DNA of 56,155 bases from an uncultured SAR86 cluster bacterium (GCA_902617955.1 CACMYW010000003.1:1-56155); one strand, 5' to 3'; numbered from the stretch's first letter, positions 12,212 to 34,492 are shown. Numbers and translations are program-made. Notes: generated by a model not told the origin, from the letters alone.

Positions 12212-12434
12212 TTTTCTCAAGCTCTTCTAGCTTAAACTCATTAAAGATATCTTGCTTTATCTCATCTGCGCCAATGTCTCTTTCGATATCCTCCCTAAAG
12301 GATGAAAATTTTCTTTTTAAGCGCGTTGTATTTTTAATTATTATTTTTGAAATCTCAGGAAGCCTTTCAGGGCCAAAAAGCAACAGAATAATTAACCCTA
12401 TAAAAAGAATTTCAATAAAGCCTATTTGAAACAA
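12192..12434 (-). CDS. tatB: Twin-arginine translocase TatB
   Basis: MFQIGFIE...FGPERLP; between tatA and tatC. Confidence 0.92.
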   Translation of the reverse strand: MFQIGFIEILFIGLIILLLFGPERLPEISKIIIKNTTRLKRKFSSFREDIERDIGADEIKQDIFNEFKLEELEKNESEKS

Positions 12435-12445
12435 TTTAGTTACTT

Positions 12446-12622
12446 CTAATCTTTAGATTTATCATTCTCCTTTGATTCGTCATCATTGATAGCTTTTTTA
12501 AAACCTTTTATGCCTTGTCCAAGATCGGACCCAATTGACCTTAGTTTTTTACTACCAAAGAGGACTAGAACCACCAAAAGAATGATTAATAGTTGCCAAA
12601 TGCTTATACCGCCTAATCCCAT
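12446..12622 (-). CDS. tatA: Twin-arginine translocase TatA, 58 aa (not in ORF track)
   Basis: Manual translation [44 protein letters not shown]... Confidence 0.96.
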
Positions 12623-12661
12623 ATTTTGACCTCTGCAATAGTATACTTTAAAAGAGAGGAG

Positions 12662-18473: not shown

Positions 18474-18522
18474 ATGACTATATTAACTCTACAGAGTAAC
18501 TAATATGTGAAATTTCGGTAAC
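18474..18522 (-). promoter_or_regulatory. Probable Pho-box array upstream of phoD
   Basis: GTTAC (18522), TTCAC (18511), GTTAC (18500) and GTCAT (18478) lie in one 11-bp register; TAATAT follows 10 bp after the third repeat. Confidence 0.5.
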
Positions 18523-18852
18523 TTAATCTTGCTTAGATTGAGGCTGTATATTTATAGGGAAAGGCGTAACTTGGTTTTTAGTTTGTTTAATTTTAGCTTC
18601 TCCAGATTCAGCAACCTCATCTATTCTGATGATGGCATTGATGGGCAAGTAAGACCTTTCAACACTCTTAAATTCATTCTTTAATTTTTCGTTTGAAGGG
18701 TCTACTACTAGCTGTTTATTTTTATTAAATATATACTCTTCAACCTCTATGAAACCATACATATCGCTTTGATAAATTTGTTTGGCAAAAATTTCATAGA
18801 TTTCTCCAAGTTGAAGAAATATTATTTTATAGATTGTCTTTTTATTAGCCAT
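18523..18852 (-). CDS. DUF1820-like protein
   Basis: YKIIF...YEIFA...GFIEVE...VVDPSNEKLKNEF...IIRIDEV pattern; divergent from miaB. Confidence 0.75.
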   Translation of the reverse strand: MANKKTIYKIIFLQLGEIYEIFAKQIYQSDMYGFIEVEEYIFNKNKQLVVDPSNEKLKNEFKSVERSYLPINAIIRIDEVAESGEAKIKQTKNQVTPFPINIQPQSKQD

Positions 18853-18862
18853 AATTAGTTAT

Positions 18863-20185
18863 ATGGGTACTAAACTTTATATTAAAACCTATGGTTGTCA
18901 AATGAATGAATATGACACCCAAAAGACTGTTGAAATCCTAAAAAAGGAAAAGGATATAGAGCTAACGCAGTCACCGGATGATGCAGAAATCATTCTTCTA
19001 AATACTTGTTCTATAAGGGAAAAGGCTGAAGAAAAGGTTTATTCAGAACTAGGAAGAATTAATAAACTTAAAGAAATGAACCCAAATTTAAAAATTGGGG
19101 TCGGTGGTTGTGTTGCCTCGCAAGAGGGAGAAAATATTTTCAAAAGAGCGCCATATGTAGACCTTATTTTTGGACCTCAAACACTCCACAAGGTACCTGA
19201 ACTATTAGATCAAGAAGATAAAATCAAAGCTGTTGATGTATCTTTCCCGATAGAGGAAAAGTTTGACTCACTGTTGCTGCCTGAGGCATCAGGCCCTTCC
19301 AGTTTTGTTTCCATAATGGAAGGCTGTTCAAAATTTTGTACTTTTTGCGTTGTGCCCTATACCAGGGGCGAAGAAGTTAGCCGAAAACCAAGGCAAATCT
19401 TTGATGAAGTTGCAAGATTAGCTGAGCAGGGTGTCAAAGAAATAGTTTTTGTTGGTCAAAATGTAAATAGTTACAAATATTCTGAGAATGGCAGAATCCT
19501 TGGTTTAGCAGATTTAATTCAAATATGTGCAGAGATTAATGGTATTGAACGCATTAGATATACAACCTCGCATCCTCTTGATATGACTAACGATTTAATA
19601 GAAATATATAAGTATGTGCCTCAATTGGTTGATCATCTCCACCTACCAGTTCAATCAGGGTCAGATAAAGTTCTTTTAGATATGAAAAGAAATTATTCAT
19701 TTGATGATTACCTCTCTATTATTGAAAGGCTTAAACAAATAAGACCAAATATAAAAATTTCTTCAGATTTTATTATTGGTTTTCCAACAGAAACTAAGAA
19801 AGATTTTGAAATGACCATGAACTTAGTTAATGAAGTAAAATTTGATGCCTCCTTTAGTTTCATCTTTTCTGCTAGACCAGGCACACCAGCTGCACAGCTA
19901 GCAGATTGCTCAACATTAAATGAAAAAAAAGAAAGGCTGTATGAACTTCAATCAAGGTTAAATGAGTTTCAGGCCTCATACAGTAAAGAATTGGAAGGAA
20001 CAATTCAAAGGTGTCTCGTAACTGATTTATCAAAGAAAGATTCACGGGAAATGCAAGCAAGAACAGAATGTAACAGAGTGGTAAATTTCCACTTCCAAAA
20101 TCCAAATATTCTAGGTAAATTAGTAGATATAAAAATTGATGAAGCACTTTCCAACTCTCTCAAAGGCACCCTTTTTACTCAATAG
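18863..20185 (+). CDS. miaB: tRNA-2-methylthio-N6-dimethylallyladenosine synthase
   Basis: TYGCQMN, NTCSIREKAE, CSKFCTFC radical SAM motif, TRAM C-terminus. Confidence 0.97.
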   Translation: MGTKLYIKTYGCQMNEYDTQKTVEILKKEKDIELTQSPDDAEIILLNTCSIREKAEEKVYSELGRINKLKEMNPNLKIGVGGCVASQEGENIFKRAPYVDLIFGPQTLHKVPELLDQEDKIKAVDVSFPIEEKFDSLLLPEASGPSSFVSIMEGCSKFCTFCVVPYTRGEEVSRKPRQIFDEVARLAEQGVKEIVFVGQNVNSYKYSENGRILGLADLIQICAEINGIERIRYTTSHPLDMTNDLIEIYKYVPQLVDHLHLPVQSGSDKVLLDMKRNYSFDDYLSIIERLKQIRPNIKISSDFIIGFPTETKKDFEMTMNLVNEVKFDASFSFIFSARPGTPAAQLADCSTLNEKKERLYELQSRLNEFQASYSKELEGTIQRCLVTDLSKKDSREMQARTECNRVVNFHFQNPNILGKLVDIKIDEALSNSLKGTLFTQ

Positions 20186-20188
20186 TTA

Positions 20189-21145
20189 ATGCAAGACCAG
20201 CAAATCTCATCCTTACATCTTAAATTAGAGCCTGAGAATCCAAAGTATATTGCCGCATTTGTTGGAGAGTTAAATGGCAACATAAAATTGATAGAAGATA
20301 AACTTTCTGTCAGGATTTTCCATAAAGGTAATGAAATTAAAATTGAAGGTGACATAAAGGTTATCGAAGAGGCGTCCAATACCATACAAAATCTTTATGC
20401 CAACTGTTGCTCGGGAGTTGAGCTATCAAGTGATATTATTCACGCCGCATTAAATAATAAAAAAGAAGACTTAAGGTCATTGAAAGAATACGTTATTAAA
20501 ACCCCCAGAAAAAAAATTTCACCAAGAACCACTAATCAGGAAAATTATTTAGCAAGCATAGACAAACATGAAATTAATTTCGGTGTAGGACCAGCTGGTA
20601 CAGGTAAAACCTATCTAGCAGTTGCAAAGGCAATAGAATTTTTGCTCTCAGAGAAGGTGGATAAGATAGTGCTTATTAGGCCAGCGGTCGAGGCAGGTGA
20701 AAAGCTAGGGTTCTTGCCTGGAGATTTAAATCAAAAAGTAGACCCATATTTGAGACCACTTTACGATGCTTTATTTGAAATGTTAGGAGTTGATAAAGCA
20801 AATAGATTATTTGAGAGAGATATTATTGAGTTAGCTCCATTAGCTTATTTAAGAGGTAGAACACTCAATAATGCATTTATTATTATGGATGAAAGTCAAA
20901 ATACCACCATTGATCAGATGAAGATGTTTCTTACAAGAACAGGATTTGGTTCATATGTTGTAGTAAATGGAGATATGTCACAAGTAGACCTTCCAAAAAA
21001 TGTTTTATCTGGGTTAAGGCATGCCATTGGAGTTCTTAAGGATGTTAATGGTATATCGATTACAGAATTTAATTCAAAAGATGTTGTAAGGCACCCATTG
21101 GTTAAAAAAATAATCGATGCTTATGCTGACCATGAGAACTCCTAA
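20189..21145 (+). CDS. ybeZ: PhoH-like ATPase (YbeZ)
   Basis: GPAGTGKTY, RPAVEAGEKLGFLPG, LAYLRGRTL, DESQN. Confidence 0.95.
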   Translation: MQDQQISSLHLKLEPENPKYIAAFVGELNGNIKLIEDKLSVRIFHKGNEIKIEGDIKVIEEASNTIQNLYANCCSGVELSSDIIHAALNNKKEDLRSLKEYVIKTPRKKISPRTTNQENYLASIDKHEINFGVGPAGTGKTYLAVAKAIEFLLSEKVDKIVLIRPAVEAGEKLGFLPGDLNQKVDPYLRPLYDALFEMLGVDKANRLFERDIIELAPLAYLRGRTLNNAFIIMDESQNTTIDQMKMFLTRTGFGSYVVVNGDMSQVDLPKNVLSGLRHAIGVLKDVNGISITEFNSKDVVRHPLVKKIIDAYADHENS

Positions 21146-21150
21146 AATTC

Positions 21151-21597
21151 ATGCCATTGAATATATTTAACAATACAGATTTAGATATACATTCTTTCAA
21201 GAGCGAGATGAATAAATTAGTAGATAAACTATTAAAAGATATGAACTCAAAACAAAATGTAAATCTCAATATCGTCGATGATGCAGAGATGCAAAAACTT
21301 AATAAAACATTCCGCAACAAAGATATGCCCACAAATGTACTGGCTTTTCCAAACATAGGTATCGGTGCAGATGATGAGCTTGGTGATATAGCTATCAATA
21401 CAGATGCTGTGACAAGAGAATCAAATCAGCAGAATATAACAACCAGAGATAGATTCTTGCATTTGCTGGCACATGGAACTTTGCATCTTTTTGGATATGA
21501 TCATAAAGAAAATATTGAAGCAGAAGCCATGGAAGAACTTGAAATAAAATACCTTAAAGACTTTAATATAAGGAATCCATATACATATGAAATCTGA
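21151..21597 (+). CDS. ybeY: rRNA maturation endoribonuclease
   Basis: PTNVLAFP, LGDI, HGTLHLFGYDH. Confidence 0.95.
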   Translation: MPLNIFNNTDLDIHSFKSEMNKLVDKLLKDMNSKQNVNLNIVDDAEMQKLNKTFRNKDMPTNVLAFPNIGIGADDELGDIAINTDAVTRESNQQNITTRDRFLHLLAHGTLHLFGYDHKENIEAEAMEELEIKYLKDFNIRNPYTYEI

Positions 21598-22426
21598 AGA
21601 AGAAAAACCTCCGTCGACAGCATTTAAAAAGCTTAAAAATCTAATATCTTTTAAACCTAAATCTCTGAATGAGGTATCAGAGGTCTTACAGCATGCGCTA
21701 AATACAAACATTATTGATAAAGAAGCTCAATTAATAGCTGAGAAGGCTATACGGCTTGGAGATACAACTTTGAAGGAAATAATGATTCCAAAGGTTGAAA
21801 TGGTCACAGTTGACGTAAATGAAAGCCAAGATGTATTTATAAATAGAATTATCGAATCTGGGCACTCAAGGTACCCTGTTATGGGCGAAAATAAGAATGA
21901 GGTTAAGGGTCTGCTTTTGGCCAAGGATATATTACCCGCTTTGCATTCTAAAACCCCAATTTCTTTAGAAAAAGTAACTAGAAATATAAAAGTAGTTCCT
22001 GAGAATAAGAAAGCCGACACTATGCTTGAAGAATTTAAAAACGACAGATCTCATATGGCAGTGGTTATAGATGAGTATGGATCAGTATCAGGCTTGATAA
22101 CCATCGAAGATGTTCTTGAGGAATTAGTCGGAGAAATTGAAGATGAACATGATACCGGCGACGTTGATGAATTAATTCAAGTGAGTCCTACTGAATATAT
22201 TGCTGACGCTAGATTAGATATAAATGTATTCGAGAAAAAATTTGACTTAAAGTTTGATGATCTTGACGCAGAAACTGTCGGTGGATTATTTATTCATAAA
22301 TTAGGTTTGCTGCCAAAAGTTGGTGATAGGATTGAAGTTAACAATATGACTTTAGCTGTCACAGCTGCTGATAAAAGGAAAGTTAAAAAGATTGGCATCA
22401 CAATTAATAAACCAACGTCTGATTAG
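21587..22426 (+). CDS. corC: CBS/CorC-domain Mg/Co homeostasis protein
   Basis: SGHSRYPV, HMAVVIDEYG, TIEDVLEELVGEIEDEHD. Confidence 0.93.
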   Translation: MKSEEEKPPSTAFKKLKNLISFKPKSLNEVSEVLQHALNTNIIDKEAQLIAEKAIRLGDTTLKEIMIPKVEMVTVDVNESQDVFINRIIESGHSRYPVMGENKNEVKGLLLAKDILPALHSKTPISLEKVTRNIKVVPENKKADTMLEEFKNDRSHMAVVIDEYGSVSGLITIEDVLEELVGEIEDEHDTGDVDELIQVSPTEYIADARLDINVFEKKFDLKFDDLDAETVGGLFIHKLGLLPKVGDRIEVNNMTLAVTAADKRKVKKIGITINKPTSD

Positions 22427-23900
22427 ATATCTCACAACCGCATTAGTTGGAATATTATCGTTTCTTGCTTTTGCACCTTATGATCAAAAGTGGACCCTAG
22501 TATTATCCTATTTATATTTGGTCTCGATACTAACTAGTTCTTCAACTAAAAATAAATGGTTGCATATTCTCTTGTGGGGATTTGGACTTTGGTTTGCTGG
22601 AACTTTTTGGCTAATAGTGAGTATTCACTATCATGGAAATGTACACATAGCATTATCAGTCACTGCATTAATTTTTCTAGGATTGTTACTTTCAAGTATA
22701 TTTGTGCTCCCGATTATGCTATTTGTATACATTAAAAGAATATCTAACTTTACAAATGCTCTCATCCTGTCTTCAATATTAATATTGCTCGAATCAGCAA
22801 GATTTTTTATTTTAGGAGGATTTCCATGGCTGCAACCAGGAGTAATTTTCCTTGATACGATACTTGATTTCTTGATACCAATAATTGGTGTGATCGGATG
22901 CTCGCTATTATTTTATTTAATAGTCTCAGCAGCAGCTCTTAGTTCAAAAAAAGCATATAAGTATGGCTTAAGTATTTTATTAATAATTGCATTTGCAATA
23001 CCTTCCTTAACCACAAAATTAGACATTCATAATTCAAGCGATGAGCATTTAAAATTTGGAATAGTTCAGCCTTCATTTGGGCCACGTCAAAAATTTGAAA
23101 GTGATTATGGGAAATCAATTGAAGATAGATTAATCAGCTTGAGTTTAGAGAAAGAAGGATTAGATCTAATTGTTTGGCCAGAATCTCCTTTTCCATACAC
23201 GCTAAAGAGCTTATATGGAAACAACCTTGTGAAGAGGCTTGAAGAGAATAATTTGAATGTAATTTCCGGTATCTACCAATCTGAATCAGCTCCTACATCA
23301 ATTAATTATTTTAATACTTTGACAATCTTGTCTAGTGAAAAATTATCCGGGTATAAAAAGGTTAATCTTGTTCCGTTTGGGGAATTTCTACCATTTGAAT
23401 CAATTCTTAGAGGTTTAATAGATTTCTTTGATTTACCTATGTCTTTTTTAAAACCTGGAAATATAACTAACGAAATTATTCCTTTTAAAAATCATTCTAT
23501 CTTGCCACTTATTTGCTTTGATACAGCATATATAAATAATTACATACAAAAAGTAAAGAAATCAACAATTGTAGTTAATGTAAGCAATGATAGTTGGTTT
23601 GGAGAGTCAAATGGTCCAGATCAGCATTTTCAGATTGTTAGATCAAGGGCAAAAGAAATTAATAGGTGGATTTTACGATCTACAACAAGTGGTATATCAG
23701 GTTTTATTGATAATAAAGGAACAATTGTTGATAAAATGGAGACAAATGAACAAGGAATTATCTCTTTTAATGTCCCCCAGACAACAAATAACTCCTTATT
23801 TGTAAATTTTGGTTATGATTTAATGAGATATATCATAATATGTTGTTCATTTTTTATTATAATATTGTTTCTAAGAAAAGTTTTAAATGAAAATTCATAG
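22392..23900 (+). CDS. lnt: Apolipoprotein N-acyltransferase
   Basis: Multiple TM helices, GGFPW, WPES, KVNLVPFGE, LICFD, SNDSWFG. Confidence 0.95.
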   Translation: MASQLINQRLIRYLTTALVGILSFLAFAPYDQKWTLVLSYLYLVSILTSSSTKNKWLHILLWGFGLWFAGTFWLIVSIHYHGNVHIALSVTALIFLGLLLSSIFVLPIMLFVYIKRISNFTNALILSSILILLESARFFILGGFPWLQPGVIFLDTILDFLIPIIGVIGCSLLFYLIVSAAALSSKKAYKYGLSILLIIAFAIPSLTTKLDIHNSSDEHLKFGIVQPSFGPRQKFESDYGKSIEDRLISLSLEKEGLDLIVWPESPFPYTLKSLYGNNLVKRLEENNLNVISGIYQSESAPTSINYFNTLTILSSEKLSGYKKVNLVPFGEFLPFESILRGLIDFFDLPMSFLKPGNITNEIIPFKNHSILPLICFDTAYINNYIQKVKKSTIVVNVSNDSWFGESNGPDQHFQIVRSRAKEINRWILRSTTSGISGFIDNKGTIVDKMETNEQGIISFNVPQTTNNSLFVNFGYDLMRYIIICCSFFIIILFLRKVLNENS

Positions 23901-24423
23901 TGCAGCATTAACTCTTATTATTCTTTCCAGTTTTCTAAGTGCTAATAAGTCTATTGAAATTGATATATCACAGCAAAGACTATACGTTTATGAAGATAAA
24001 TCGATGTTAGCTAGTTACCCTATATCTAGCTCATCTTTTGGAGAAGGTCAAATCGAAAATTCCTATAAAACACCTCTAGGAAAACACAAAATTCTTACTA
24101 AAATAGGAACAAATGTTGAAAAAAATACAATTTTTGTTAGTAGAGAAAATATGAATCAAGTTGCTGAGATAGTTCATGAGAGACATAATAATGAAAATGA
24201 CTACGTTACATCAAGAATACTATGGCTTGATGGGCTTGAAGAAGGTCATAACAAAGGCGGAAACGTAGATTCCTTTAAAAGATACATATATATTCATGGC
24301 ACACATGAAGAAGGACTCATAGGCGAGAAAGCGTCACACGGGTGTATAAGGATGTTCAATAATGATGTAATTGAGCTGTTTTCTTACATCCCTGAAGAAA
24401 CGGAAGTAAATATAAAAATTTAG
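23887..24423 (+). CDS. YkuD-family L,D-transpeptidase
   Basis: Signal peptide, TPLG, IYIHGT...ASHGCIRM. Confidence 0.9.
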   Translation: MKIHSAALTLIILSSFLSANKSIEIDISQQRLYVYEDKSMLASYPISSSSFGEGQIENSYKTPLGKHKILTKIGTNVEKNTIFVSRENMNQVAEIVHERHNNENDYVTSRILWLDGLEEGHNKGGNVDSFKRYIYIHGTHEEGLIGEKASHGCIRMFNNDVIELFSYIPEETEVNIKI

Positions 24424-26564
24424 TATTTAACTTCTTGCTTAAATGCTAATTTCTTTTTTTTGAGATCATCTGTTGGCGCATCAGCAAACCTCCCACCATC
24501 ATTGGCTAATGCAACGAGTAAATCTGCTGGTTTCCAGAAATCTTCATCTTTTTCTGCAAATTTATTTATCTTTTCAAGTACTTTGTCTAGACCAATTGAG
24601 TTCGCATAAAACATTGGACCACCTCTCCATATAGGAAAACCATAACCATTGATATAAACGATATCCATATCACTTGATCTTTGAGCAACACCCTCTTCTA
24701 AGATCTTCGCTCCTTCGTTTACTAAACCGAGAATACATCTATCAACTATTTCTTCATCAGAAATATCTCTTCTAGTAAAACCATTTTCTTCTGCAACTTT
24801 GACATAGATCTCTTCATTTTCTGGTGCTGGGTTAGGGGCACGAGATCCATCAGAATAATTATAGAAACCCTTACCATTCTTTTGACCAAACCTTTCTTGT
24901 TCACATAACGCATCTGCAATTTTATTGATAAGAGGTGTTTCGAGTTTTGCAAGTTTTCTTGCTCTCCACCCTAAATCTAACCCAACTAAATCCATCATTC
25001 TGAAGGGCCCCATACTCATTCCGAAGGATTCAAGTGCAGTATCAATTTGATTAGGTAATGCGCCTTCCAGTAACAACATATTTGCCTGTTGGGTATAACC
25101 AAAAAGCATTCTATTGCCTATAAAACCTGGTGCATTTAAAGACATAACGGCAGCCTTCTTTATAATCTTTCCTAACTTCATTATTGTCGCAAGAGTTTCT
25201 TTGGATGTTTTCTCTCCTCTTACAATTTCTAATAATCTCATAATATTGGCTGGACTAAAAAAGTGAGTACCCACTATCTTTTCTGGCCTATTAGTAACTG
25301 ATGAAATTGCATCAATATCAAGACCTGAAGTATTGCTTGCAAGAATAGCATCGTCCTTAACTACGTTATCAAGTTTCTTAAAAATTTCTTGTTTTAAATC
25401 AAGATTTTCATAAACTGCCTCAACTACAATGTCACAGTCAGCTAGATCCTCATAATTGAGTGATGGTGTAATTAAGCTCATAACACCATCTTTCATTTCT
25501 TGTGAAAGTCTTCCACGGTCGACCATCATTTGATAATTTTTTTCTATAACACCTATTCCCCTTTCTAGGTTCTTCTCATCTTGATCAAGAACAATTACAG
25601 GTATACCTGCATTAGCAAAATTCATTGCAATACCACCCCCCATTGTTCCTGAACCAACAACACCTGCAGATCCTATTTTTTGGGTTTCTGTATCTTTAGG
25701 TACATCTAATATTTTTCCAGCTGTTCTTTCACCAAAGAATATATGGATCATTGCTTCTCTTTGAGGATGAAGCAAACACTCTAGAAACAAATCAGATTCT
25801 TTCTTCATACCAGCATCAAAATCATCTTCTTCAATTGCAGCCTCTACACATTTGATAATTTGACCAGGTGCAAATTGACCTTTTCTTGACTTAGATGCTA
25901 AAGCTTTTGCTTCTGCCATTACGTTTTCATTGCCACGTGCTTCCAATAATTTTTCATTTAAGTCTCTTACCTTTGGATGTTCAGTTGTTTCATCAAGCTT
26001 TTTATGCAAAAAGCTAATCGCGTCCTCTACTAAATCACCGGTAGAAATGCCATCTAAAACACCTTGATCAAGTGCTTTTTTCGCAGGAACTGGTACCCCT
26101 GAAAGCATTATTTTAAGTGCTTGTGATGGCCCAACTATTCTTGGCAACCTTTGGGTTCCACCTGCACCGGGCAATAAGCCTAAATTAACTTCTGGTAATC
26201 CTACAATTGATTTTTCAGTTGCAATTCTGTAATTACAACATAGAGCTGTCTCTAAACCGCCACCTAAAGCAGGCCCATTTATTGCTGCAACAACTGGTTT
26301 CTCGCTATATTCAATGTTTTTTAGTGCAGTATGGAGATCCGGACCTTCCATTTTTTGACCAAATTCAGATATATCTGCGCCAGCTATGAATGCATTTCCT
26401 GCTCCTTTTAAGACAATACCTCTAACATTTTCATCACTATTTGCTTTATCAAATTGATCACAAAGACCAACTCTAACACCACTGCTTAAAGGGTTTACAG
26501 GCGGATTATCAACCTCAAGGATTGCAATATCACCTCGTAATTCGTAGTTAACTGTACCTTTCAT
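24420..26564 (-). CDS. Bifunctional enoyl-CoA hydratase/3-hydroxyacyl-CoA dehydrogenase
   Basis: AGADI, GGGLE, PEVNLGLLPGAGGTQR, GSGTMGGG, SNTS, HFFSPA, GFIGNR. Confidence 0.95.
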   Translation of the reverse strand: MKGTVNYELRGDIAILEVDNPPVNPLSSGVRVGLCDQFDKANSDENVRGIVLKGAGNAFIAGADISEFGQKMEGPDLHTALKNIEYSEKPVVAAINGPALGGGLETALCCNYRIATEKSIVGLPEVNLGLLPGAGGTQRLPRIVGPSQALKIMLSGVPVPAKKALDQGVLDGISTGDLVEDAISFLHKKLDETTEHPKVRDLNEKLLEARGNENVMAEAKALASKSRKGQFAPGQIIKCVEAAIEEDDFDAGMKKESDLFLECLLHPQREAMIHIFFGERTAGKILDVPKDTETQKIGSAGVVGSGTMGGGIAMNFANAGIPVIVLDQDEKNLERGIGVIEKNYQMMVDRGRLSQEMKDGVMSLITPSLNYEDLADCDIVVEAVYENLDLKQEIFKKLDNVVKDDAILASNTSGLDIDAISSVTNRPEKIVGTHFFSPANIMRLLEIVRGEKTSKETLATIMKLGKIIKKAAVMSLNAPGFIGNRMLFGYTQQANMLLLEGALPNQIDTALESFGMSMGPFRMMDLVGLDLGWRARKLAKLETPLINKIADALCEQERFGQKNGKGFYNYSDGSRAPNPAPENEEIYVKVAEENGFTRRDISDEEIVDRCILGLVNEGAKILEEGVAQRSSDMDIVYINGYGFPIWRGGPMFYANSIGLDKVLEKINKFAEKDEDFWKPADLLVALANDGGRFADAPTDDLKKKKLAFKQEVKY

Positions 26565-26724
26565 TAAATACCTCTTATTTTATGTAAATTCTCAGAATAG
26601 AGATGAAATTATATAGTCATTATTTTGTTAAATATACTGAAAATACACTATACATATCTTAATATTGCTGATTAATTCATAAATTTTATATAGTAAAATT
26701 AATTTAAATTATTTATAAATACTA

Positions 26725-26752
26725 TTGATATTTAAATATAAATACATATAAT
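26725..26752 (+). promoter_or_regulatory. Sigma70-type promoter
   Basis: TTGATA (26725-26730), 16-bp spacer, TATAAT (26747-26752), 7 nt before a hairpin start. Confidence 0.6.
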
Positions 26753-26757
26753 AGTAC

Positions 26758-26833
26758 AAGTCAGCACTCCTCTCCCCCTATGTATTGCTGACATTCTCTG
26801 GAAATAATGGAGGGCTCAATGCCCTCCTTTTTT
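26758..26833 (+). ncRNA. Candidate small RNA or attenuator with C-rich loop
   Basis: GC-rich island in AT-rich spacer: GTCAGCA/TGCTGAC stem enclosing CTCCTCTCCCCCTATGTAT, then a terminator hairpin. Confidence 0.65.
26809..26833 (+). terminator. Rho-independent terminator
   Basis: GGAGGGC-TCAAT-GCCCTCC-TTTTTT. Confidence 0.85.
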
Positions 26834-26840
26834 AAAAAAT

Positions 26841-26942
26841 ATGAGCAAAAAGCATAAGAAAAAAATAATAGAATCTGTTGAAGTGCTTACTTTAGTAACT
26901 CTGTTTCTTTCAAGTATTTATGCTGTTGCACCTGTAGTATAG
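26841..26942 (+). CDS. Putative 33-aa single-pass membrane peptide
   Basis: MSKKHKKKIIESVEVLTLVTLFLSSIYAVAPVV*: basic N-terminus plus hydrophobic helix; fills the gap between terminator and GPx. Confidence 0.6.
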   Translation: MSKKHKKKIIESVEVLTLVTLFLSSIYAVAPVV

Positions 26943-26951
26943 TATTCCTCT

Positions 26952-27494
26952 ATGCGGCTAGTATTAGCATTAATAATTTCTTTGTGTTTTTTTGGAATCA
27001 CCCAATTTGTGAGTGCCTGCTCAGATTTGCTAAACCATGAAATCAGGTTGCTTGATTCTGATGAAAAGTTAAATCTTTGTGAGTTAACCGGAAAATCTGT
27101 TCTTGTTGTAAACGTTGCGAGTAGATGTGGATATACAAATCAATATACTGAATTACAAAATTTATATGAGACTTATTCAGAGATGGGTTTCACAGTTTTA
27201 GGTGTCCCATCAAGAGATTTCTATCAAGAATTTAGAGATGACTCCAAGGTCTCTGAATTTTGCTCAACTGAATACGGCGTGACATTCCCTATGCTAACTA
27301 CCAGCAAAGTAAAAGGCTCTAAAGCACTACCATTCTTTAAGAAACTTGCTGAAGCTTCTGGCATGGAACCTAATTGGAATTTTAATAAATACTTAATTTC
27401 AAAAGATGGCTCAACTGTAGAGGGCTTTCGATCAAAAGTTAAACCAAGTTCCGAAGAACTAATTTATAAAATTACAACTGACCTTAATAGTTAA
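26952..27494 (+). CDS. Glutathione peroxidase-family protein with signal peptide
   Basis: VVNVASRCGYT (Cys, not Sec), QE, WNFNKYL. Confidence 0.93.
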   Translation: MRLVLALIISLCFFGITQFVSACSDLLNHEIRLLDSDEKLNLCELTGKSVLVVNVASRCGYTNQYTELQNLYETYSEMGFTVLGVPSRDFYQEFRDDSKVSEFCSTEYGVTFPMLTTSKVKGSKALPFFKKLAEASGMEPNWNFNKYLISKDGSTVEGFRSKVKPSSEELIYKITTDLNS

Positions 27495-28126
27495 GCAGTT
27501 AAAACCTTATTAGGTTTTCTGATAGCAAATATCCCATTATCAACAACACCTGGTATTGAATTTATCTGAATTTCCATATCCTTTGGATTTGATAAATCAA
27601 GTTTTGAAACGTCAATGATATGATTGCCCTGATCTGTAATGACACCACACCTATAAGTTGGAACTCCTCCTAGTTTTACAATTTCTCTTGAAACAAAACT
27701 TCTACTTTCGATCAAAACTTCAACAGGAACACCAAAGTTTCCTAGACATTCAACATGCTTTGATTGATCTACAATACAAACAAACTGATTCGAAGCTGAG
27801 GCAACCAATTTTTCTCTTGTGTGAGCTCCGCCACCACCCTTAATTAAGTTATGTGATGGGTCAACTTCATCAGCTCCATCGATATAAAACTGAATTTCAT
27901 TTACATCATTAAGACTAAAAATCTCTACATTAAACTCTTGAAGAAGTAGGGTAGAAGCTTCAGAGCTAGATACGGCACCTTTAAACTGAATGTTGCTTTG
28001 TTTTAAGATCTCGATGAAGCAATTGACTGTGGACCCGGTTCCAATTCCTAATATAGATTCTTTATTTATTTGAGGAGCCATTTCCTCAAACGCCTTTTTA
28101 GCAACCTGCACCTTTGCGTCACTCAT
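27491..28126 (-). CDS. rpiA: Ribose-5-phosphate isomerase A
   Basis: GIGTGST, DGADEVD, IKGGG, PGVVDNG. Confidence 0.97.
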   Translation of the reverse strand: MSDAKVQVAKKAFEEMAPQINKESILGIGTGSTVNCFIEILKQSNIQFKGAVSSSEASTLLLQEFNVEIFSLNDVNEIQFYIDGADEVDPSHNLIKGGGGAHTREKLVASASNQFVCIVDQSKHVECLGNFGVPVEVLIESRSFVSREIVKLGGVPTYRCGVITDQGNHIIDVSKLDLSNPKDMEIQINSIPGVVDNGIFAIRKPNKVLTA

Positions 28127-28159
28127 ACTTGTATAATAAACAAAATATTAGCTTTTACT

Positions 28160-29704
28160 ATGCGTTTAAAAATAAAAAAAACGGGATCATTCAAGCAATC
28201 CAAGAAGTATATTGATTTAATTAATCAGGCCACTGTTTATGATACTGCTATTAAGACCCCGATTACTTTTGCCAAAAATATTTCTAAGAAATTAGCTAAT
28301 GACGTTTTCTTAAAAAGAGAGGACTTGCAACCAGTTTTTTCTTTTAAAAATAGAGGAGCTTACAACAAGATTTCACAATTGTCTGCATCACAAAAAAAAC
28401 TAGGAGTTATAGCTGCATCTGCTGGAAATCATGCTCAGGGCGTTGCTAATGCATCACAAAAATTAAAGATCCCATGTTTAATTGTCATGCCTGAAACAAC
28501 TCCAGAAATTAAAATCCAATCCGTACAATCATTTGGCTCAAAAATCCTTTTACATGGTGATAACTATAATCAGGCATACAAAAAGGCATCTCAGATTGCC
28601 AAGGATAAAGGGATGGAGTTAATTCCTGCCTTTGATGACCCGCTAACCATTGCGGGTCAGGGTACGATAGGTAAGGAGATTGAATCCGAGGAAGAAGCTT
28701 TTGATGCCGTATTTGTACCAGTTGGTGGAGGAGGCCTATTAGCAGGTGTATCAGCATGGATTGCTCAGCATTCACCAAAAACCAAAGTCTATGGTATAGA
28801 AGTAGAAGATTCAGCATGTCTCTTGGAAGCAGTTAAATTTAATAAGCGTGTAAAACTAAGAGAAGTTGGACTGTTTGCTGACGGCGTGGCTGTTGAACAA
28901 ATTGGTAAACATACTTTTGAAGTAATTAAAGAGTGTGTTGACGGTGTTATTACGGTGTCAATTGATGAAGTTTGTGCTGCCGTAAAAGATATATTTGAAG
29001 ACACCAGAGTTTTATCTGAGCCGGCAGGGGCATTGGCTCTTGCTGGTTTAAAAAAGTACTGTAAAAAAATTAATAATAAGAAATTAATTGCAATTAGCAG
29101 TGGCGCAAATATAAATTTTGAAAGACTTAGCTATATTGTTGAGAGATCTGAAGTAGGTGAAGATCGTGAGAAATTATTGAGTATAAAGATCCCTGAAAAA
29201 CCAGGGAGTTTCCTTAAGTTATGCAGAATCTTTGGAAAGTCACAGATTACCGAATTTAATTATCGTTTTTCTGATCAGGCTGAGGCACACGTATTGGTTG
29301 GCATTCGTCTAAAAAATGATAATGCCTTTAAAACATTAAGAGCAAAGTTAAAAAAAAGTCGCTTCTCGTATTCCGACTTAACTCGCAGCGTCATTTCAAA
29401 CGATCATTTACGTCATATGATCGGAGGCCACTTAATTAAAGCCAACAATTTAAATGAAAGGCTGTTTAGATGTAAGTTTCCTGTGAAACCAGGAGCTTTA
29501 TTGGATTTTCTTAAAGCCTTTGGATCCGAAAGAAATATTTCACTTTTTCATTACCGAAATCTTGGAGCTGCATTTGCAAATGTTTTAATTGGTATCCAGG
29601 AAAAAACGGGAAAACAAAAATCTCTAATCAAGCATCTTCAGTCACTTGATTATGAGTTTATCGAAGAGTCTGACAATGTCGGCTACATAAATTTTTTGAA
29701 ATGA
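28160..29704 (+). CDS. ilvA: Biosynthetic threonine ammonia-lyase
   Basis: KREDLQPVFSFK, ASAGNHAQG, GGGGL, two ACT-like C-terminal repeats; likely start ATG 28160. Confidence 0.96.
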   Translation: MRLKIKKTGSFKQSKKYIDLINQATVYDTAIKTPITFAKNISKKLANDVFLKREDLQPVFSFKNRGAYNKISQLSASQKKLGVIAASAGNHAQGVANASQKLKIPCLIVMPETTPEIKIQSVQSFGSKILLHGDNYNQAYKKASQIAKDKGMELIPAFDDPLTIAGQGTIGKEIESEEEAFDAVFVPVGGGGLLAGVSAWIAQHSPKTKVYGIEVEDSACLLEAVKFNKRVKLREVGLFADGVAVEQIGKHTFEVIKECVDGVITVSIDEVCAAVKDIFEDTRVLSEPAGALALAGLKKYCKKINNKKLIAISSGANINFERLSYIVERSEVGEDREKLLSIKIPEKPGSFLKLCRIFGKSQITEFNYRFSDQAEAHVLVGIRLKNDNAFKTLRAKLKKSRFSYSDLTRSVISNDHLRHMIGGHLIKANNLNERLFRCKFPVKPGALLDFLKAFGSERNISLFHYRNLGAAFANVLIGIQEKTGKQKSLIKHLQSLDYEFIEESDNVGYINFLK

Positions 29705-30840
29705 AAAATATAAAAGATTTTGAAGTTTATGTCCCGCAATCAAAAATTGATTTACTGCATGAAAAAATAGCGCTCACTCGATGGCCAGATGAATTAAATG
29801 ATAATAAGTGGTCCCTCGGAACAAGCCTAGATTATTTGAAAAAAGCTACGCATGCTTGGGTTAATGATTTTAGTTGGCGAGATCATGAGGCTTTAATCAA
29901 TAATGCTGGTAGCCATATGTTTCATTCAAGTTCAGGGTTAGATATTCACTTTCTTCATAGTAAATCAAAACATAAAAATGCATACCCCTTAGTGATGACG
30001 CATGGTTGGCCAGGGAGTGTGCAGGAGTTTTTATCAATCATACCGATCCTTAACGAAGGAATAGATGGAGTTTCTTTTGATGTTGTATGTCCTTCAATGC
30101 CCGGTTATGGATTCTCTTCTAAACCAAATGATTTTGGAATGAACTCTCAGGAAATTGCAAAGATTAACCATGAACTTATGCTTGCTCTTGGATATAAAAA
30201 ATATATAGCTCAAGGTGGTGATTGGGGTGCAACAGTGAGTAAGTGGATGGCGGATCAGTTCAAGGATAGCTGCGAAGCCTTGCATTTAAATTTAGTTCTT
30301 GCCTGGCCACCTGACAGCGATGACCCTATGAAAGGAGTTACTGAGGATGAGATTGAAGGCATGAAAAACTTTGAAAAATACCAAGAGGAGGGGTTTGGAT
30401 ACTTTGCTATTCAAAGTACAAAACCTCAAACTGTTGCTTATGGTTTAAATGATTCTCCTGTAGGTTTGGCTGCGTGGATTATCGAAAAGTTTCATGCATG
30501 GACTGACGATGATTTAGATAAATTAGTTATACCTCTTGATCATGTACTCAGCATTGTTTCACTTTATTGGTATACAGAAACTATTTCCTCCTCGATGAGG
30601 CTTTATTATGAGAATGGTCAAACAGGTTTTTCTTTTGACTATGTAGACCAACCTACAGGATGTGCAGTTTTTGATCGTGAGATCGCAAAGCCGCCCAAAG
30701 CTTGGGCTGAGAAAATATATCACATAAAGCATTGGGACACTCACCCAGGAGGTCATTTTGCTGCAATGGAAAATCCTAAGATTCTTGCCGAAAGTATTGT
30801 AAACCTTGTTAAGAAGGGCGATTTATCAGCAGGTAAATAA
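29701..30840 (+). CDS. Epoxide hydrolase (microsomal EH-like)
   Basis: TRWP N-domain, HGWPGS, QGGDWG, DSPVGLAAWI, GGHFAA. Confidence 0.92.
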   Translation: MKNIKDFEVYVPQSKIDLLHEKIALTRWPDELNDNKWSLGTSLDYLKKATHAWVNDFSWRDHEALINNAGSHMFHSSSGLDIHFLHSKSKHKNAYPLVMTHGWPGSVQEFLSIIPILNEGIDGVSFDVVCPSMPGYGFSSKPNDFGMNSQEIAKINHELMLALGYKKYIAQGGDWGATVSKWMADQFKDSCEALHLNLVLAWPPDSDDPMKGVTEDEIEGMKNFEKYQEEGFGYFAIQSTKPQTVAYGLNDSPVGLAAWIIEKFHAWTDDDLDKLVIPLDHVLSIVSLYWYTETISSSMRLYYENGQTGFSFDYVDQPTGCAVFDREIAKPPKAWAEKIYHIKHWDTHPGGHFAAMENPKILAESIVNLVKKGDLSAGK

Positions 30841-31365
30841 TCCATTCTCATTACAAATGTAGTCCATTGGAACATCATGAGACTCACTATCAAATGATAG
30901 ATTTTGTAATTCGAAAGCAATTCCTATTTTTTTAGCGTCACTAGAAGTTAAGGCTTTATCATAATAGCCGCCCCCATAACCCAATCTATTACCTGACTTG
31001 TTGTATGCCAGACATGGACATATAAATAACTCAATGTCATTAACTGAAATCTCTTCATTGTCAGTTTCCTTAATACCAAATTTGTTTACAACAAAAGTAT
31101 CATCAACTTTATGTAGGGTAAAAACCATGCTGTTAGAAATAATCTTTGGAAGAACAATTAATTTATTTAAATCAAAACAACTCTTAATAATATAACTTGT
31201 GTCCACCTCATTTTTTATAGGTAAATAGCAAGCAATCAGGTTTGCTTCTTGAAAAATTTCAGATTCAACAATATTTGTTTGTATTTTTTTTGATCGATCA
31301 AGGTACTCATCTTGAGGAAGATGTAGCCTCCGATTAAGTTGTGATTTTCTTAAATCAGATTTCAC
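30826..31365 (-). CDS. ygfA: 5-formyltetrahydrofolate cyclo-ligase
   Basis: NEVDT, GNRLGYGGGYYD, HDVPMD; likely GTG start at 31365, downstream of 6S RNA. Confidence 0.93.
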   Translation of the reverse strand: MKSDLRKSQLNRRLHLPQDEYLDRSKKIQTNIVESEIFQEANLIACYLPIKNEVDTSYIIKSCFDLNKLIVLPKIISNSMVFTLHKVDDTFVVNKFGIKETDNEEISVNDIELFICPCLAYNKSGNRLGYGGGYYDKALTSSDAKKIGIAFELQNLSFDSESHDVPMDYICNENGLFTC

Positions 31366-31378
31366 GATTACGGAGGCT

Positions 31379-31549
31379 AAAAACCAATTCACCGCTATAC
31401 ATTTTTTCCTGAACCGAAAGTCCAGGTGGCAAAGCTCTTATCGAATCAGGCTTCCCTAAGGTATTGCTCAACATCGACAGTGGAATATTGCCTATCATTT
31501 AAGTATCGGTTCAAAGATATCGAATGTATTGGCAAATGAACCAGTGTTT
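31379..31549 (-). ncRNA. ssrS: 6S RNA
   Basis: Canonical zapA-ssrS-ygfA position; rod pairing ACTGGTTCATTTGC/GCGGTGAATTGGT, ATACATT/AATGTAT, TGAACCGA/TCGGTTCA around a central bubble; TATAAT just upstream; ends approximate. Confidence 0.88.
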
Positions 31550-31601
31550 AAATTATACATCTTAAAATTGATTTCAACATGCAGGATTTTTTCAAGCAAG
31601 A

Positions 31602-31862
31602 TTAATTCAGGGCATCATCAATGGATGAGATTATTTGATTAATTTTATTTGAATCATCGTCACTTACTTGTGTTCCCTTAAGTGACTGAAACGCTAGATT
31701 AAGTGCTGCCAAAATTAGCGCGTTGCCTTTATCCGGTATCTGTTCAATCTCTTTGTTTAGAATTGTTGAGGCTTCTAATAGAAGTGGCTTATCCTCAGGA
31801 GGACAAGCAATTGAAATATCTCTTCCCATCACACGTATCGATAGGATCTCTTTATCACTCAT
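31602..31862 (-). CDS. zapA: Cell division protein ZapA
   Basis: IRVMGRDISIACP, LAALNLA; synteny with 6S RNA. Confidence 0.85.
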   Translation of the reverse strand: MSDKEILSIRVMGRDISIACPPEDKPLLLEASTILNKEIEQIPDKGNALILAALNLAFQSLKGTQVSDDDSNKINQIISSIDDALN

Positions 31863-32058
31863 GTTCAGATCTTGATTGCAGTTTAGCTAGGTCTCTCTTT
31901 AAGGACTCAATTTCTTGTGCCTGTAAGATTTTATTTTCTTTCCAAACCCTTTCCTGTTTGATGTAGTGATCAATGATTCCTTTTTGCTCATTGAACCTAT
32001 TGAGCAAGTCATTTACTTTTTTAATTAGGTCAGAGAGCCCTTTTTCTTTCGATTCCAT
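31855..32058 (-). CDS. Small coiled-coil protein (ZapB/TIGR02449-like)
   Basis: 67-aa heptad pattern, immediately upstream of zapA. Confidence 0.6.
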   Translation of the reverse strand: MESKEKGLSDLIKKVNDLLNRFNEQKGIIDHYIKQERVWKENKILQAQEIESLKRDLAKLQSRSEHE

Positions 32059-32126
32059 TAAATATCAGTTTAAATCTTAGATGTAATTTAGGGAAGTTTG
32101 ATAGAAAAAAAGAGTAAAATGCTTTT

Positions 32127-33425
32127 ATGAAAACTATGTTTGCAGACAGAAGAAAAGCAGTTGGCGGTGCAATGGGTCCTAATGCATGCCTGCTGATTGC
32201 AAGTAATGATCATGTTTCACGTAACATTCATCATACTTACTCTTTTAGACAGGACAGTTATTTTTGGTATCTATCTGGGTTTAATGAGTCAGATTCCATA
32301 ATAGTTATTAAAACTGATAGCGAGGCAAACTTAAGCTCCTATATGTATGTTCCACCTAAAGATGAACATTCAGAACTTTGGGACGGATATCGTGCTGGAC
32401 CTAAAGGCGCTGAAGACGACTATGGATTTTCTAAGGGATACAACAACCATGAGGCAGATCAAACCATTCCAGATTTATTGGCAGGATGTAATAAGGTTTT
32501 TTCATTAATTGGTTACAAAGAAGATTTTTCTAAGAGGGTTGCAGGTTGGGTTAAGCAGGCAAGATTGAAAGATCGCCATACTGCAGCCATCGAACACCTT
32601 GATGCTGGGCCATTTTTATCCTCGTTAAGGCGAGTTAAATCAGAAAAAGAAATCCAATTAATGAAAAAGGGTTGTGAGATTTCCGCACAAGCGCATAAAG
32701 CAGCCATGCAATTTGTTGCTCCCAATATGAATGAGCAAAGTCTTGAAGCGTTTTATTTATATAAATTTGCTGAGCAAGGCTCAAGGTTTCCTGCTTATAC
32801 ACCAATTGTTGCGGGTGGTGAACATGCTTGCATCTTGCATTATGTTGAGAATGATCAAACCTTAAATGATGGTGATCTAGTTTTAGTTGATGCAGGTGGA
32901 GAATATGAATGTTATGCATCAGACATCACAAGAACATATCCTGTGAATGGAAAATTTAGTGATGAGCAGCTAGCAGTTTATAAGGTTGTTTTGGAGGCTC
33001 ACAAACAAGCCATTGAGGCGGTCAAAACAGGGAATCATATTATGCAGCCTCAAGAAATTTCTGAACAAGTTATTACTGAGGGATTGGTTGATTTGGGCAT
33101 ACTTGATGGAAAAACCGAAGATTTATTGGAAGAGGGCGCTCACAAAAACTTTTACATGCATAAAGTTGGCCATTGGATAGGCCTAGATACACATGATGTG
33201 GGAGCTTACTCAGATGGCAATAATTTCACTAATTATGAGGCAGGAATGGTGCAAACCATTGAGCCAGGAATTTATATTTCTAGCAAAAGCTCTGTTGATG
33301 AAAAATGGAAGGGGATCGGGGTTCGAATCGAAGACAATATTCTTATTACCGATCAAGGCAATGAAAACCTTACACAAAGCGCTCCAGTAGATCCAAAAGA
33401 AATTGAAGCCCTGATGTCTTCATAA
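32127..33425 (+). CDS. pepP: Xaa-Pro aminopeptidase
   Basis: FRQDSYFWYL, DAG, ASDITRT, GHWIGLDTHD, TIEPGIY, GVRIEDN. Confidence 0.96.
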   Translation: MKTMFADRRKAVGGAMGPNACLLIASNDHVSRNIHHTYSFRQDSYFWYLSGFNESDSIIVIKTDSEANLSSYMYVPPKDEHSELWDGYRAGPKGAEDDYGFSKGYNNHEADQTIPDLLAGCNKVFSLIGYKEDFSKRVAGWVKQARLKDRHTAAIEHLDAGPFLSSLRRVKSEKEIQLMKKGCEISAQAHKAAMQFVAPNMNEQSLEAFYLYKFAEQGSRFPAYTPIVAGGEHACILHYVENDQTLNDGDLVLVDAGGEYECYASDITRTYPVNGKFSDEQLAVYKVVLEAHKQAIEAVKTGNHIMQPQEISEQVITEGLVDLGILDGKTEDLLEEGAHKNFYMHKVGHWIGLDTHDVGAYSDGNNFTNYEAGMVQTIEPGIYISSKSSVDEKWKGIGVRIEDNILITDQGNENLTQSAPVDPKEIEALMSS

Positions 33426-33430
33426 ATTCA

Positions 33431-34492
33431 ATGAGTATTTTAATTGCAGGCAATGGTATTGTTGCAAAAATACTTTCAATCAAATTAAGACAATCAGGCA
33501 TTTCATCACAGATCCTTGAGGGGGATCCTAAGCATTACCAAAATATTAGAACCATTACTCTCAATCCTGCATCGATAGATTTTTTGAATAGCTTGGATTT
33601 AGGAATTTCAAAAGCTGAGGTTCAAGATATTCATGTTTATGATGCAGAGGGCAGTGGCCGGATTTCTTTTTCAAGTGATGACATTACCGAAGATTACCTT
33701 GCAAAGGTAGTTTTTTACGACGAACTAAATAATGCTTTGGCCAGACATAATTTTAATTTTTTCTCAAAGAATGATCTTGAACAAAATAAAAAATCCACTG
33801 ATCTAGTTATTTACTGTGATTCAAATCAGCAAAACATGCTCGGTGTTAAAGAGGCCCAAAGTTATGAGCAAATCGGTCATACATTTTTGGTCTCTAGCAA
33901 TGACTTAAATGATAACTCGGCAAAGCAATATTTTTATAAAAATGAAATTTTTGCGATTATGCCAACTAATAAAAATAATTTATTTACTGTTGTTTGGTCG
34001 ATCCCAAAAGCTCATGCGTCATCTGATAAAGAGTCAGTTAAGAAAAGTCTCTCAAAGATTTCTAAGAAATTTAATCTCAAATTAAAACTTGAAAGTGAGA
34101 TTGTTTCATTCCCCTTGTCGCATCATCACACAAAAGATTATGTTAAGCCTGGCCAATGTATTTTGGCTGATGCCGCACATTCAATCCACCCCCTTGCAGG
34201 GCAAGGACTCAATCTCGGTATTGCAGATGCAAGTGTTCTTTTAGAAGAACTTGTCAAAGCTAGAAATGCAAATCTTTCGTTTGGAGATATCGCTGTTCTT
34301 AAAAGATATGAAATCAGACGAAGAACAATCAACAAGTCTATGTTGTCGGGCATTAATCTCCTCAACGGTTTATTCAAAGCAGACAATCTTTATTTAAGAT
34401 TTGTCAGAAATAGGGGTCTTAGCCTGGTAGATAATGTTCCTCAATTGAAAAAATTTTTTATAAAAAATGCAATAGGAGAGATAAGATTTTAA
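33431..34492 (+). CDS. UbiH/UbiI/UbiF-family FAD hydroxylase, shortened and divergent
   Basis: DAAHSIHPLAGQGLNLG; position after pepP. Confidence 0.85.
   Translation: MSILIAGNGIVAKILSIKLRQSGISSQILEGDPKHYQNIRTITLNPASIDFLNSLDLGISKAEVQDIHVYDAEGSGRISFSSDDITEDYLAKVVFYDELNNALARHNFNFFSKNDLEQNKKSTDLVIYCDSNQQNMLGVKEAQSYEQIGHTFLVSSNDLNDNSAKQYFYKNEIFAIMPTNKNNLFTVVWSIPKAHASSDKESVKKSLSKISKKFNLKLKLESEIVSFPLSHHHTKDYVKPGQCILADAAHSIHPLAGQGLNLGIADASVLLEELVKARNANLSFGDIAVLKRYEIRRRTINKSMLSGINLLNGLFKADNLYLRFVRNRGLSLVDNVPQLKKFFIKNAIGEIRF

Follow-up and report, generated by a model that had tools for sequence, protein, structure and literature searches.

A conserved, apparently undescribed RNA gene with a C-rich loop ahead of a glutathione peroxidase operon in two families of SAR86

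We asked what is encoded by a short intergenic segment (positions 26725-26833) on a 56,155-nt stretch of DNA from an uncultured SAR86 cluster bacterium (GCA_902617955.1 CACMYW010000003.1:1-56155; the whole stretch is called the window here). A preliminary description had proposed an undescribed small RNA (sRNA) with a C-rich, anti-Shine-Dalgarno loop at this place. The host assembly amounts to 0.9 Mb (58% complete, 36% G+C), and those of its relatives range from 0.9 to 1.8 Mb. The segment lies in a gap of 387 nt (26565-26951). The preliminary description took it for the largest gap of the window, but a crude ORF list (110 aa or longer) gave three that exceed it, of 734 nt (31393-32126), 441 nt (12221-12661) and 389 nt (18474-18862), and the 387-nt gap is itself partly occupied by a conserved small ORF (26841-26942, see below). 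The gap of 734 nt contains a 6S RNA (31377-31550, minus strand; Rfam RF00013, 64.1 bits) adjoining a 5-formyltetrahydrofolate cyclo-ligase gene (30826-31392), the classical ssrS-ygfA arrangement. The parts of the element are as follows:

26709..26722, plus strand: conserved A/T-rich block TTATTTATAAATAC, directly 5' of the -35 sequence
26725-26730, plus strand: -35 sequence TTGATA of a sigma-70-type promoter
26747-26752, plus strand: -10 sequence TATAAT, separated from the -35 by a 16-nt spacer (whole promoter, 26725..26752)
26759..26833, plus strand: predicted RNA of ~75 nt, from the inferred start to the end of the T-run
26760..26792, plus strand: hairpin 1 (5'-terminal), with a 7-bp stem and a 19-nt loop
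26767..26778, plus strand: C-rich loop motif CUCCUCUCCCCC, the proposed seed, with core CUCUCCCC
26796..26803, plus strand: linker motif CUCUGGAA, recognised in the alignment
26809..26833, plus strand: hairpin 2 and U-tract, an intrinsic terminator

The promoter scored 11/12, the top of 33 promoter-like sites in a 14-kb scan (20000-34000), and TTGATA together with [TC]ATAAT occupied identical columns in 28/28 primary loci aligned by BLAST, which bears out the promoter seen in the preliminary description. Judged by its distance from the -10 sequence (7-8 nt), transcription would start at about position 26759. The stem of hairpin 1 pairs GUCAGCA (26760-26766) with UGCUGAC (26786-26792), and its 19-nt loop (26767-26785) opens with CUCCUCUCCCCC; the perfect 7-bp stem displaying a C-rich loop had thus been read correctly. 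A linker of 16 nt (26793-26808) leads to hairpin 2, in which GGAGGGC (26809-26815) pairs with GCCCUCC (26821-26827) and is followed by six T residues (26828-26833). The textbook terminator of the preliminary description also held up as a strong one, hairpin 2 being the best of 10 terminator-like sites in the same 14-kb scan. Positions 26758-26833 have a minimum free energy of -24.2 kcal/mol (z = -3.87), none of 200 shuffled sequences folding equally well, and this 76-nt stretch folds as just the two hairpins, with the loop motif CUCCUCUCCCCC predicted to be unpaired in the ensemble.

A BLAST search with the 387-nt spacer in full gave matches in 37 of the 61 relatives, and beyond the window's genus only the segment from ~26675 to 26840, promoter to terminator, was kept, at ~70-83% identity. 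An alignment of 38 instances (A1) was used to build a covariance model, R1, which matches positions 26757-26836 of the window at 85.9 bits. When 151 genomes of the order were searched with R1, matches appeared in 38/40 genomes of the window's family (f1) and in 29/30 of family f4; families f2 and f3 gave none (0/40 each) under strict filters by which weak matches could be lost. A pattern combining the promoter and the loop was present at 29 places in 185,579 species genomes. Twenty-three of these places belonged to gammaproteobacterial SAGs or MAGs and all 23 matched R1 (42-88 bits); the pattern-positive genomes include TMED112 as well as SCGC AAA076-P13 and AAA168-P09, which we take to be SAGs of the 2011 SAR86 genome paper. 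The other six places (Anaerolineales, two cyanobacteria, Peribacteria, Glaesserella and Thermoplasmatota) had no significant R1 match, five of them none at E up to 1 and that of Glaesserella 14.5 bits (E 0.14); by a rough estimate, six is about the number expected by chance. A pattern scan of metagenomes led to five long contigs, which say nothing about transcript ends. Conservation over two families puts the element far beyond what chance would produce. D2472 ('Suzuki') and TMED112 (CHAB-I-7) are sister families in GTDB, according to the part available of a paper on a SAR86 isolate (PMC11582366). If f1 and f4 correspond to these two, the RNA would have arisen once, in their common ancestor.

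Covariation among homologues, which the preliminary description had named as a check, was found. In an alignment of 69 R1 matches, 64 of them distinct (A2), which was fitted to the model's structure and so leans towards it, compensatory changes on both sides occurred in 12 of the 14 base pairs, six of seven in each hairpin. Paired cells made up 98.7% in hairpin 1 and 96.4% over the structure, as against 35-53% when the 3' partners were slid by 1-3 columns, and none of 500 shuffles reached the observed covariation score. Stem variants taken from a MAFFT alignment were GUCAGCA/UGCUGAC, CCAGCA/UGCUGG, ACCAACA/UGUUGGU and CAGCUAGCA/UGCUAGCU for hairpin 1, and GGAGGGC/GCCCUCC, GGAGAGC/GCUCUCC, GGAGGAC/GUCCUCC and GGGGC/GCCCC for hairpin 2. 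The loop core CUCUCCCC was at least 95% invariant among the 64 distinct sequences; the 3' half of the same loop varies freely and is almost missing in f4. A fixed loop next to covarying stems indicates selection on the loop sequence itself. The block TTATTTATAAATAC, which could be a UP-element-like or operator-like sequence, was kept in the alignments of both f1 and f4 loci despite a different upstream gene.

These observations bear on the simplest explanation, namely that the element has no dedicated function and amounts to a strong promoter for the genes downstream, a stabilising 5' hairpin and a second, fortuitous hairpin. Hairpins at the extreme 5' end are common stabilisers of mRNA, and the U-tract is weak in some members: at least five T within 8 nt after hairpin 2 were counted in 50/64 distinct sequences and a run of at least four in 45/64, with a few members, e.g., L043 and L066, having no U-tract. 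However, an invariant loop beside covarying stems, paralogous copies that have no gene to express (see below) and conservation over two families with very streamlined genomes make this explanation highly improbable. We conclude that the element is a genuine RNA gene, conserved in two SAR86 families and apparently undescribed.

Two genes follow the RNA on the same strand:

26841..26942, plus strand: unannotated small ORF of 33 aa (MSKKHKKK...), with a basic N-terminus and one predicted membrane helix
26952..27494, plus strand: glutathione peroxidase gene (gpx; BtuE-like; PF00255, E = 4.6e-27)

With the small ORF beginning 8 nt past the T-run, the RNA doubles as the 5' leader of an operon made of the small ORF and gpx. 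The main copy of the RNA was always located 8-30 nt 5' of the small ORF, which encodes 28-33 aa across f1 and f4. An ORF of at least 25 aa was called at this position in 19/28 f1 loci, a count from a simple caller, some of the other loci containing N or starting outside the search range; it was also found in f4. No Pfam or NCBIfam family covers the small protein and a search of the ESM Atlas returned nothing above 0.78. The pattern E-x3-L-x3-F-x2-S-x2-A-I-x-P is kept in both families and therefore the small protein is very likely real. The gpx gene, 9 nt past the small ORF, encodes an N-terminal signal or lipoprotein-like sequence.

Gene order around the RNA was compared among the four families. 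In f1, wherever the flanks reached far enough (28/28 loci), a fadJ-like gene (minus strand) is followed by the RNA, the small ORF, gpx, then rpiA (minus strand) and ilvA; gpx itself was seen in 27/28 loci, which are all those of sufficient length. In f4, 4/4 loci kept the RNA with the small ORF, gpx and rpiA; there the upstream neighbour is a co-directional pair of lnt and an L,D-carboxypeptidase-like gene. In f2 and f3, gpx lies a few bases past a carboxypeptidase (ElsL-like) gene, with neither RNA nor small ORF, in 5/5 genomes (L104-L108). Note that in the window a fadJ-like gene (24420-26564, minus strand) separates the ElsL-like gene (23887-24423) from the RNA. The joint presence and absence of RNA and small ORF across the four families shows that they form one module, and this module supplies gpx with its own promoter. 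A type I toxin-antitoxin pair was considered and rejected: the RNA is on the same strand as the ORF and 5' of it rather than antisense to the peptide mRNA, the start region of the ORF has no G-rich stretch to match the loop, and the ORF belongs to the gpx operon across two families.

Such a position would also suit an RNA acting purely in cis, i.e., an attenuator or riboswitch-like leader that sets read-through into the operon of small ORF and gpx. The short RNA would then be a by-product, with a ligand or a protein sensed by the C-rich loop or by the CUCUGGAA linker. The main copy directly precedes the small ORF and gpx in f1 and likewise in f4, where another gene lies upstream, and where a family has no RNA the small ORF is missing too, gpx following the elsL-like gene directly in the five genomes mentioned. 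Sequences from RNA libraries point the same way. Thirteen runs recorded as RNA contain part of the stretch, and four were examined, all as assembled Logan contigs, which show neither ends, strand nor level and whose source could be DNA carried into the RNA libraries. X1 is a 170-nt contig equal to 26788-26957 with zero differences, X7 a 182-nt contig equal to 26767-26946 with 10 differences, X2 a 154-nt contig equal to 26809-26959, and X4 a 1118-nt contig across 26450-27107 with ~94% identity. X1 and X7, from libraries of different studies, and X4 cross the terminator's 3' end with more than 31 nt to either side; thus molecules in these libraries extend beyond the RNA into the small ORF. No space is left for an extra promoter between hairpin 2 and the small ORF, and the hairpin 2 terminator is probably leaky. 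The lack of cover 5' of 26767 in X1, X2 and X7 carries no information, and the contig ends at ~26946-26959 were discarded as RNA ends, for they coincide with a patch of strain differences in X4 (26947-26958).

A possible switch for such a leader is a pairing, predicted in the nascent RNA, between the CUCUGGAA motif of the gpx-linked copies and the 5' arm of the terminator (GGAGGG). It shows no covariation because both of its sides are invariant. Yet this linker hairpin is weak (~2 kcal/mol against ~14 for the terminator), and CUCUGGAA is conserved solely in the gpx-linked copies of f1, f4 having almost no linker. Besides, no riboswitch class of Rfam matches, even at E up to 10. The pure leader has a further difficulty, which lies in additional copies of the RNA.

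In genera g2, g3 and g6, R1 has a second match elsewhere in the genome, unlinked to gpx; the window's own genus carries the gpx-linked copy only. In all 11 second copies examined the promoter is equally distant, hairpin 1 has its C-rich loop and hairpin 2 is followed by T-rich sequence, with other A/U-rich linkers in place of CUCUGGAA. Their upstream genes differ (pseudoazurin-like, apt, ABC ATPase), and all 11 stop at, or a few nt from, the stop codon of a convergent sbcB-like exonuclease gene, no plus-strand ORF being found downstream in any of them. The three most diverged ones (L165, L166 and L167) have another spacer, and one of them also another -35 sequence; their loop keeps UCUCCCCCC. 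With no gene downstream, a cis leader has nothing to control at these places, which favours a trans-acting sRNA. Facing the end of a convergent gene, these 11/11 copies that keep promoter, loop and terminator argue against the pure leader, the main rival, which we consider unlikely. As far as can be judged from sequence, the element presents the attributes generic to sRNA genes, i.e., a conserved promoter and terminator of its own and free-standing copies. We therefore lean, by a modest degree, towards a trans-acting sRNA with a C-rich seed that is also the leader of a peroxide-defence operon. The preliminary description had put forward a trans-acting translational regulator; its own promoter and terminator, the conserved loop and the unlinked copies speak for that part, but no target was found (see below).

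The promoter spacer contains an inverted repeat, TGATATT-TA-AATATAA, at 26726-26741. Its general form is TGATAWW-NN-AWTATAA, the central dinucleotide varying between genera across f1, and the pattern is unique within genome G000. The repeat resembles the half-sites of Fur and PerR but is arranged 7-2-7 and not as the canonical 7-1-7 Fur box. Fur is present, and a canonical 7-1-7 Fur-type box, TGATAATTATTATCA, occurs in G000 at C29:5261. The repeat is missing from the diverged second copies L165-L167.

How would such an sRNA find its targets? Searches for the classical chaperones gave Hfq in 0/41 genomes of the order (0/30 of high quality), the control search being positive in five model genomes, and neither ProQ nor CsrA in five near-complete genomes (0/5 each). 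These results fit a chaperone-independent, G-C-rich seed. A single exposed, G-C-rich seed that works unaided by a chaperone is described in published accounts as the mode of RsaE, IsrR and 6C, and also of the cuckoo RNAs (PMC4615179, PMC8034643). Target prediction, also named as a check in the preliminary description, was run as a scan of the start regions of 870 crude gene calls in G000: 35 of them paired with the loop at -14 kcal/mol or better, compared with 27-46 for six shuffled loops, so that the true seed did no better than shuffled ones. A genome-wide duplex scan and a list of loop-complementary 7-mers were too noisy for use. The most appealing hit, the ribosome-binding site of ftsZ (L117-L146), was inspected as a conserved target; it reads GGGGAGAG in the window's genus, AGGGGA across f1 and AAGGAGGG in f3, and no G-rich form was found in f4. 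This candidate was rejected, for f4 carries the RNA yet has no G-rich ftsZ site. The ftsZ sites reveal in their own right a marked difference between families in the use of Shine-Dalgarno sequences.

The missing targets and chaperones would also fit a decoy, its pyrimidine-rich loop titrating a protein such as Rho (YC-rich sites), a cold-shock protein or one with a KH or S1 domain. Invariance extends over 8-12 nt of the loop, which exceeds a minimal seed, no mRNA target stands out, and none of the classical sRNA chaperones turned up in the genomes searched. Nevertheless, known sponges have many repeated sites where the SAR86 RNA has one, and single C-rich loops in other bacteria act through base pairing, according to the text available of PMC4615179. 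We regard a sponge as improbable, and base pairing by a trans-acting sRNA is the reading followed here.

The whole window contained only the 6S RNA at the Rfam gathering score, and between 26400 and 27100 a search at E up to 10 gave sub-threshold hits only, with no cuckoo/CcsR, RsaE or riboswitch class among them; the word undescribed in the preliminary description is therefore consistent with Rfam. One of these hits, SraG (27.6 of 50 bits, minus strand, 26805-26898), was dismissed as a chance match resting on the palindromic terminator; sraA (22.5 of 56 bits) was also taken as chance. R1 itself gives a weak minus-strand match of 31 bits at the same window positions (26805-26898), which likewise rests on the palindrome.

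The same description had likened the loop to those of cuckoo/CcsR and RsaE. The analogy of a C-rich loop stands, but the RNA is a member of neither family, having no Rfam match and a single C-rich hairpin. In mode, the closest likeness is to the CcsR/cuckoo RNAs of Alphaproteobacteria (RSs0680a-d, alpha-r14 group). According to the available portions of two papers (PMC4615179, PMC8034643), these have C-rich anti-Shine-Dalgarno loops, share a transcript with a small-protein gene and increase the glutathione pool. Common to both systems are a C/U-rich, anti-Shine-Dalgarno-like loop kept fixed among variable stems, as the same portions have it for cuckoo (PMC4615179, PMC8034643), the coupling to a small-protein gene, to oxidative stress and to glutathione physiology, and the presence of several copies in some genomes. 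The systems differ as well. In cuckoo RNAs, 2-4 hairpins stand side by side and all carry CCUCCUCCC (PMC4615179, part available), and the SAR86 RNA has one with CUCCUCUCCCCC plus a plain terminator. The former are released by RNase E from the 3' UTR of a DUF1127 gene, as far as the available accounts go, whereas the latter precedes an ORF for a membrane peptide that belongs to no Pfam family. Binding to Hfq is also described there for cuckoo RNAs, and Hfq was not found in the 41 genomes of the SAR86 order. Finally, SAR86 belongs to the Gammaproteobacteria and its RNA has no Rfam match.

RsaE/RoxS and IsrR/FsrA of the Firmicutes resemble the SAR86 RNA, in the descriptions at hand, in being short, with their own promoter and terminator and an exposed C-rich motif. 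No chaperone is needed for these motifs to pair with G-rich ribosome-binding sites. They differ from the SAR86 RNA in having two or three C-rich regions, including UCCC, where it has one loop and no Rfam relationship to them; they have known regulons (TCA cycle, iron sparing) and known regulators (ResD/Rex, Fur). Some 5' leaders yield sRNAs through premature termination, such as the riboswitch-derived SreA/SreB of Listeria and rnTrpL of Sinorhizobium. The likeness is that one promoter gives both a short, terminated trans RNA and a read-through mRNA of the downstream genes; those leaders, however, have a known ligand or leader-peptide switch, whereas the SAR86 RNA has no convincing antiterminator or ligand pocket and has stand-alone copies.

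For SAR86 itself, Dupont et al. mention, in the part of the paper available, one abundant unnamed non-coding RNA in a glycolysis/pentose-phosphate region of SAR86A and SAR86B (PMC3358033). Apart from that RNA, a full-text literature search returned no SAR86 sRNA in the texts it covered (PMC3358033), and the accessible sections of the paper on a SAR86 isolate make no mention of sRNA, Hfq or riboswitches (PMC11582366). That isolate, HIMB1674, is placed in the Magnimaribacteraceae (PMC11582366), probably one of the two families in which R1 had no match, and no cultured carrier of the RNA is known to us. In four near-closed genomes (G034, G032, G009 and G007), the R1 match nearest to the glk/zwf locus was ~82 kb away (a weak second match in G034) and the others hundreds of kb, so our RNA appears distinct from that of Dupont et al., the two being set apart by position only. 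Both glk and zwf lie together at ~1,061,000-1,069,500 of G034:C1 and ~472,700-481,100 of G032:C1.

The following course of events would agree with these observations. A strong, conserved sigma-70-type promoter would start transcription at about 26759, and the RNA would open with a protective hairpin whose loop exposes a near-invariant C/U-rich sequence with core CUCUCCCC, ending at the GC-rich terminator hairpin. By analogy with the RNAs discussed above, the loop seed would most likely pair, with no chaperone, with G-rich stretches of other mRNAs, e.g., ribosome-binding sites, and lower their translation. At the gpx-linked copy, the leaky terminator would allow a longer transcript for the 33-aa membrane protein and the secreted glutathione peroxidase, and the shared promoter would tie production of the RNA to peroxide defence, a putative link to oxidative stress. 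We infer both the discrete product of 75 nt and its base-pairing mode of action.

A broader reading is that the RNA is a clade-defining, chaperone-free global riboregulator of the two families, at once a repressor with a C-rich seed and, through its leaky terminator, the start of a peroxide-defence operon. We hold this tentatively, as a possibility short of probable. If it were true, post-transcriptional control would be firmly wired to redox defence in a genome of ~1.2 Mb with no recognisable Hfq, ProQ or CsrA, and some genera would have gained, by duplication, a free-standing sibling of the RNA under another promoter. SAR86 bacteria rank with the most abundant heterotrophs of surface seawater, and they have streamlined genomes and few regulators. 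A near-universal RNA of two of their families, placed next to a peroxide-defence operon and with none of the known RNA chaperones found, offers a handle on post-transcriptional control in SAR86, and it could serve as a marker of the physiological state of these bacteria, readable directly from marine metatranscriptomes.
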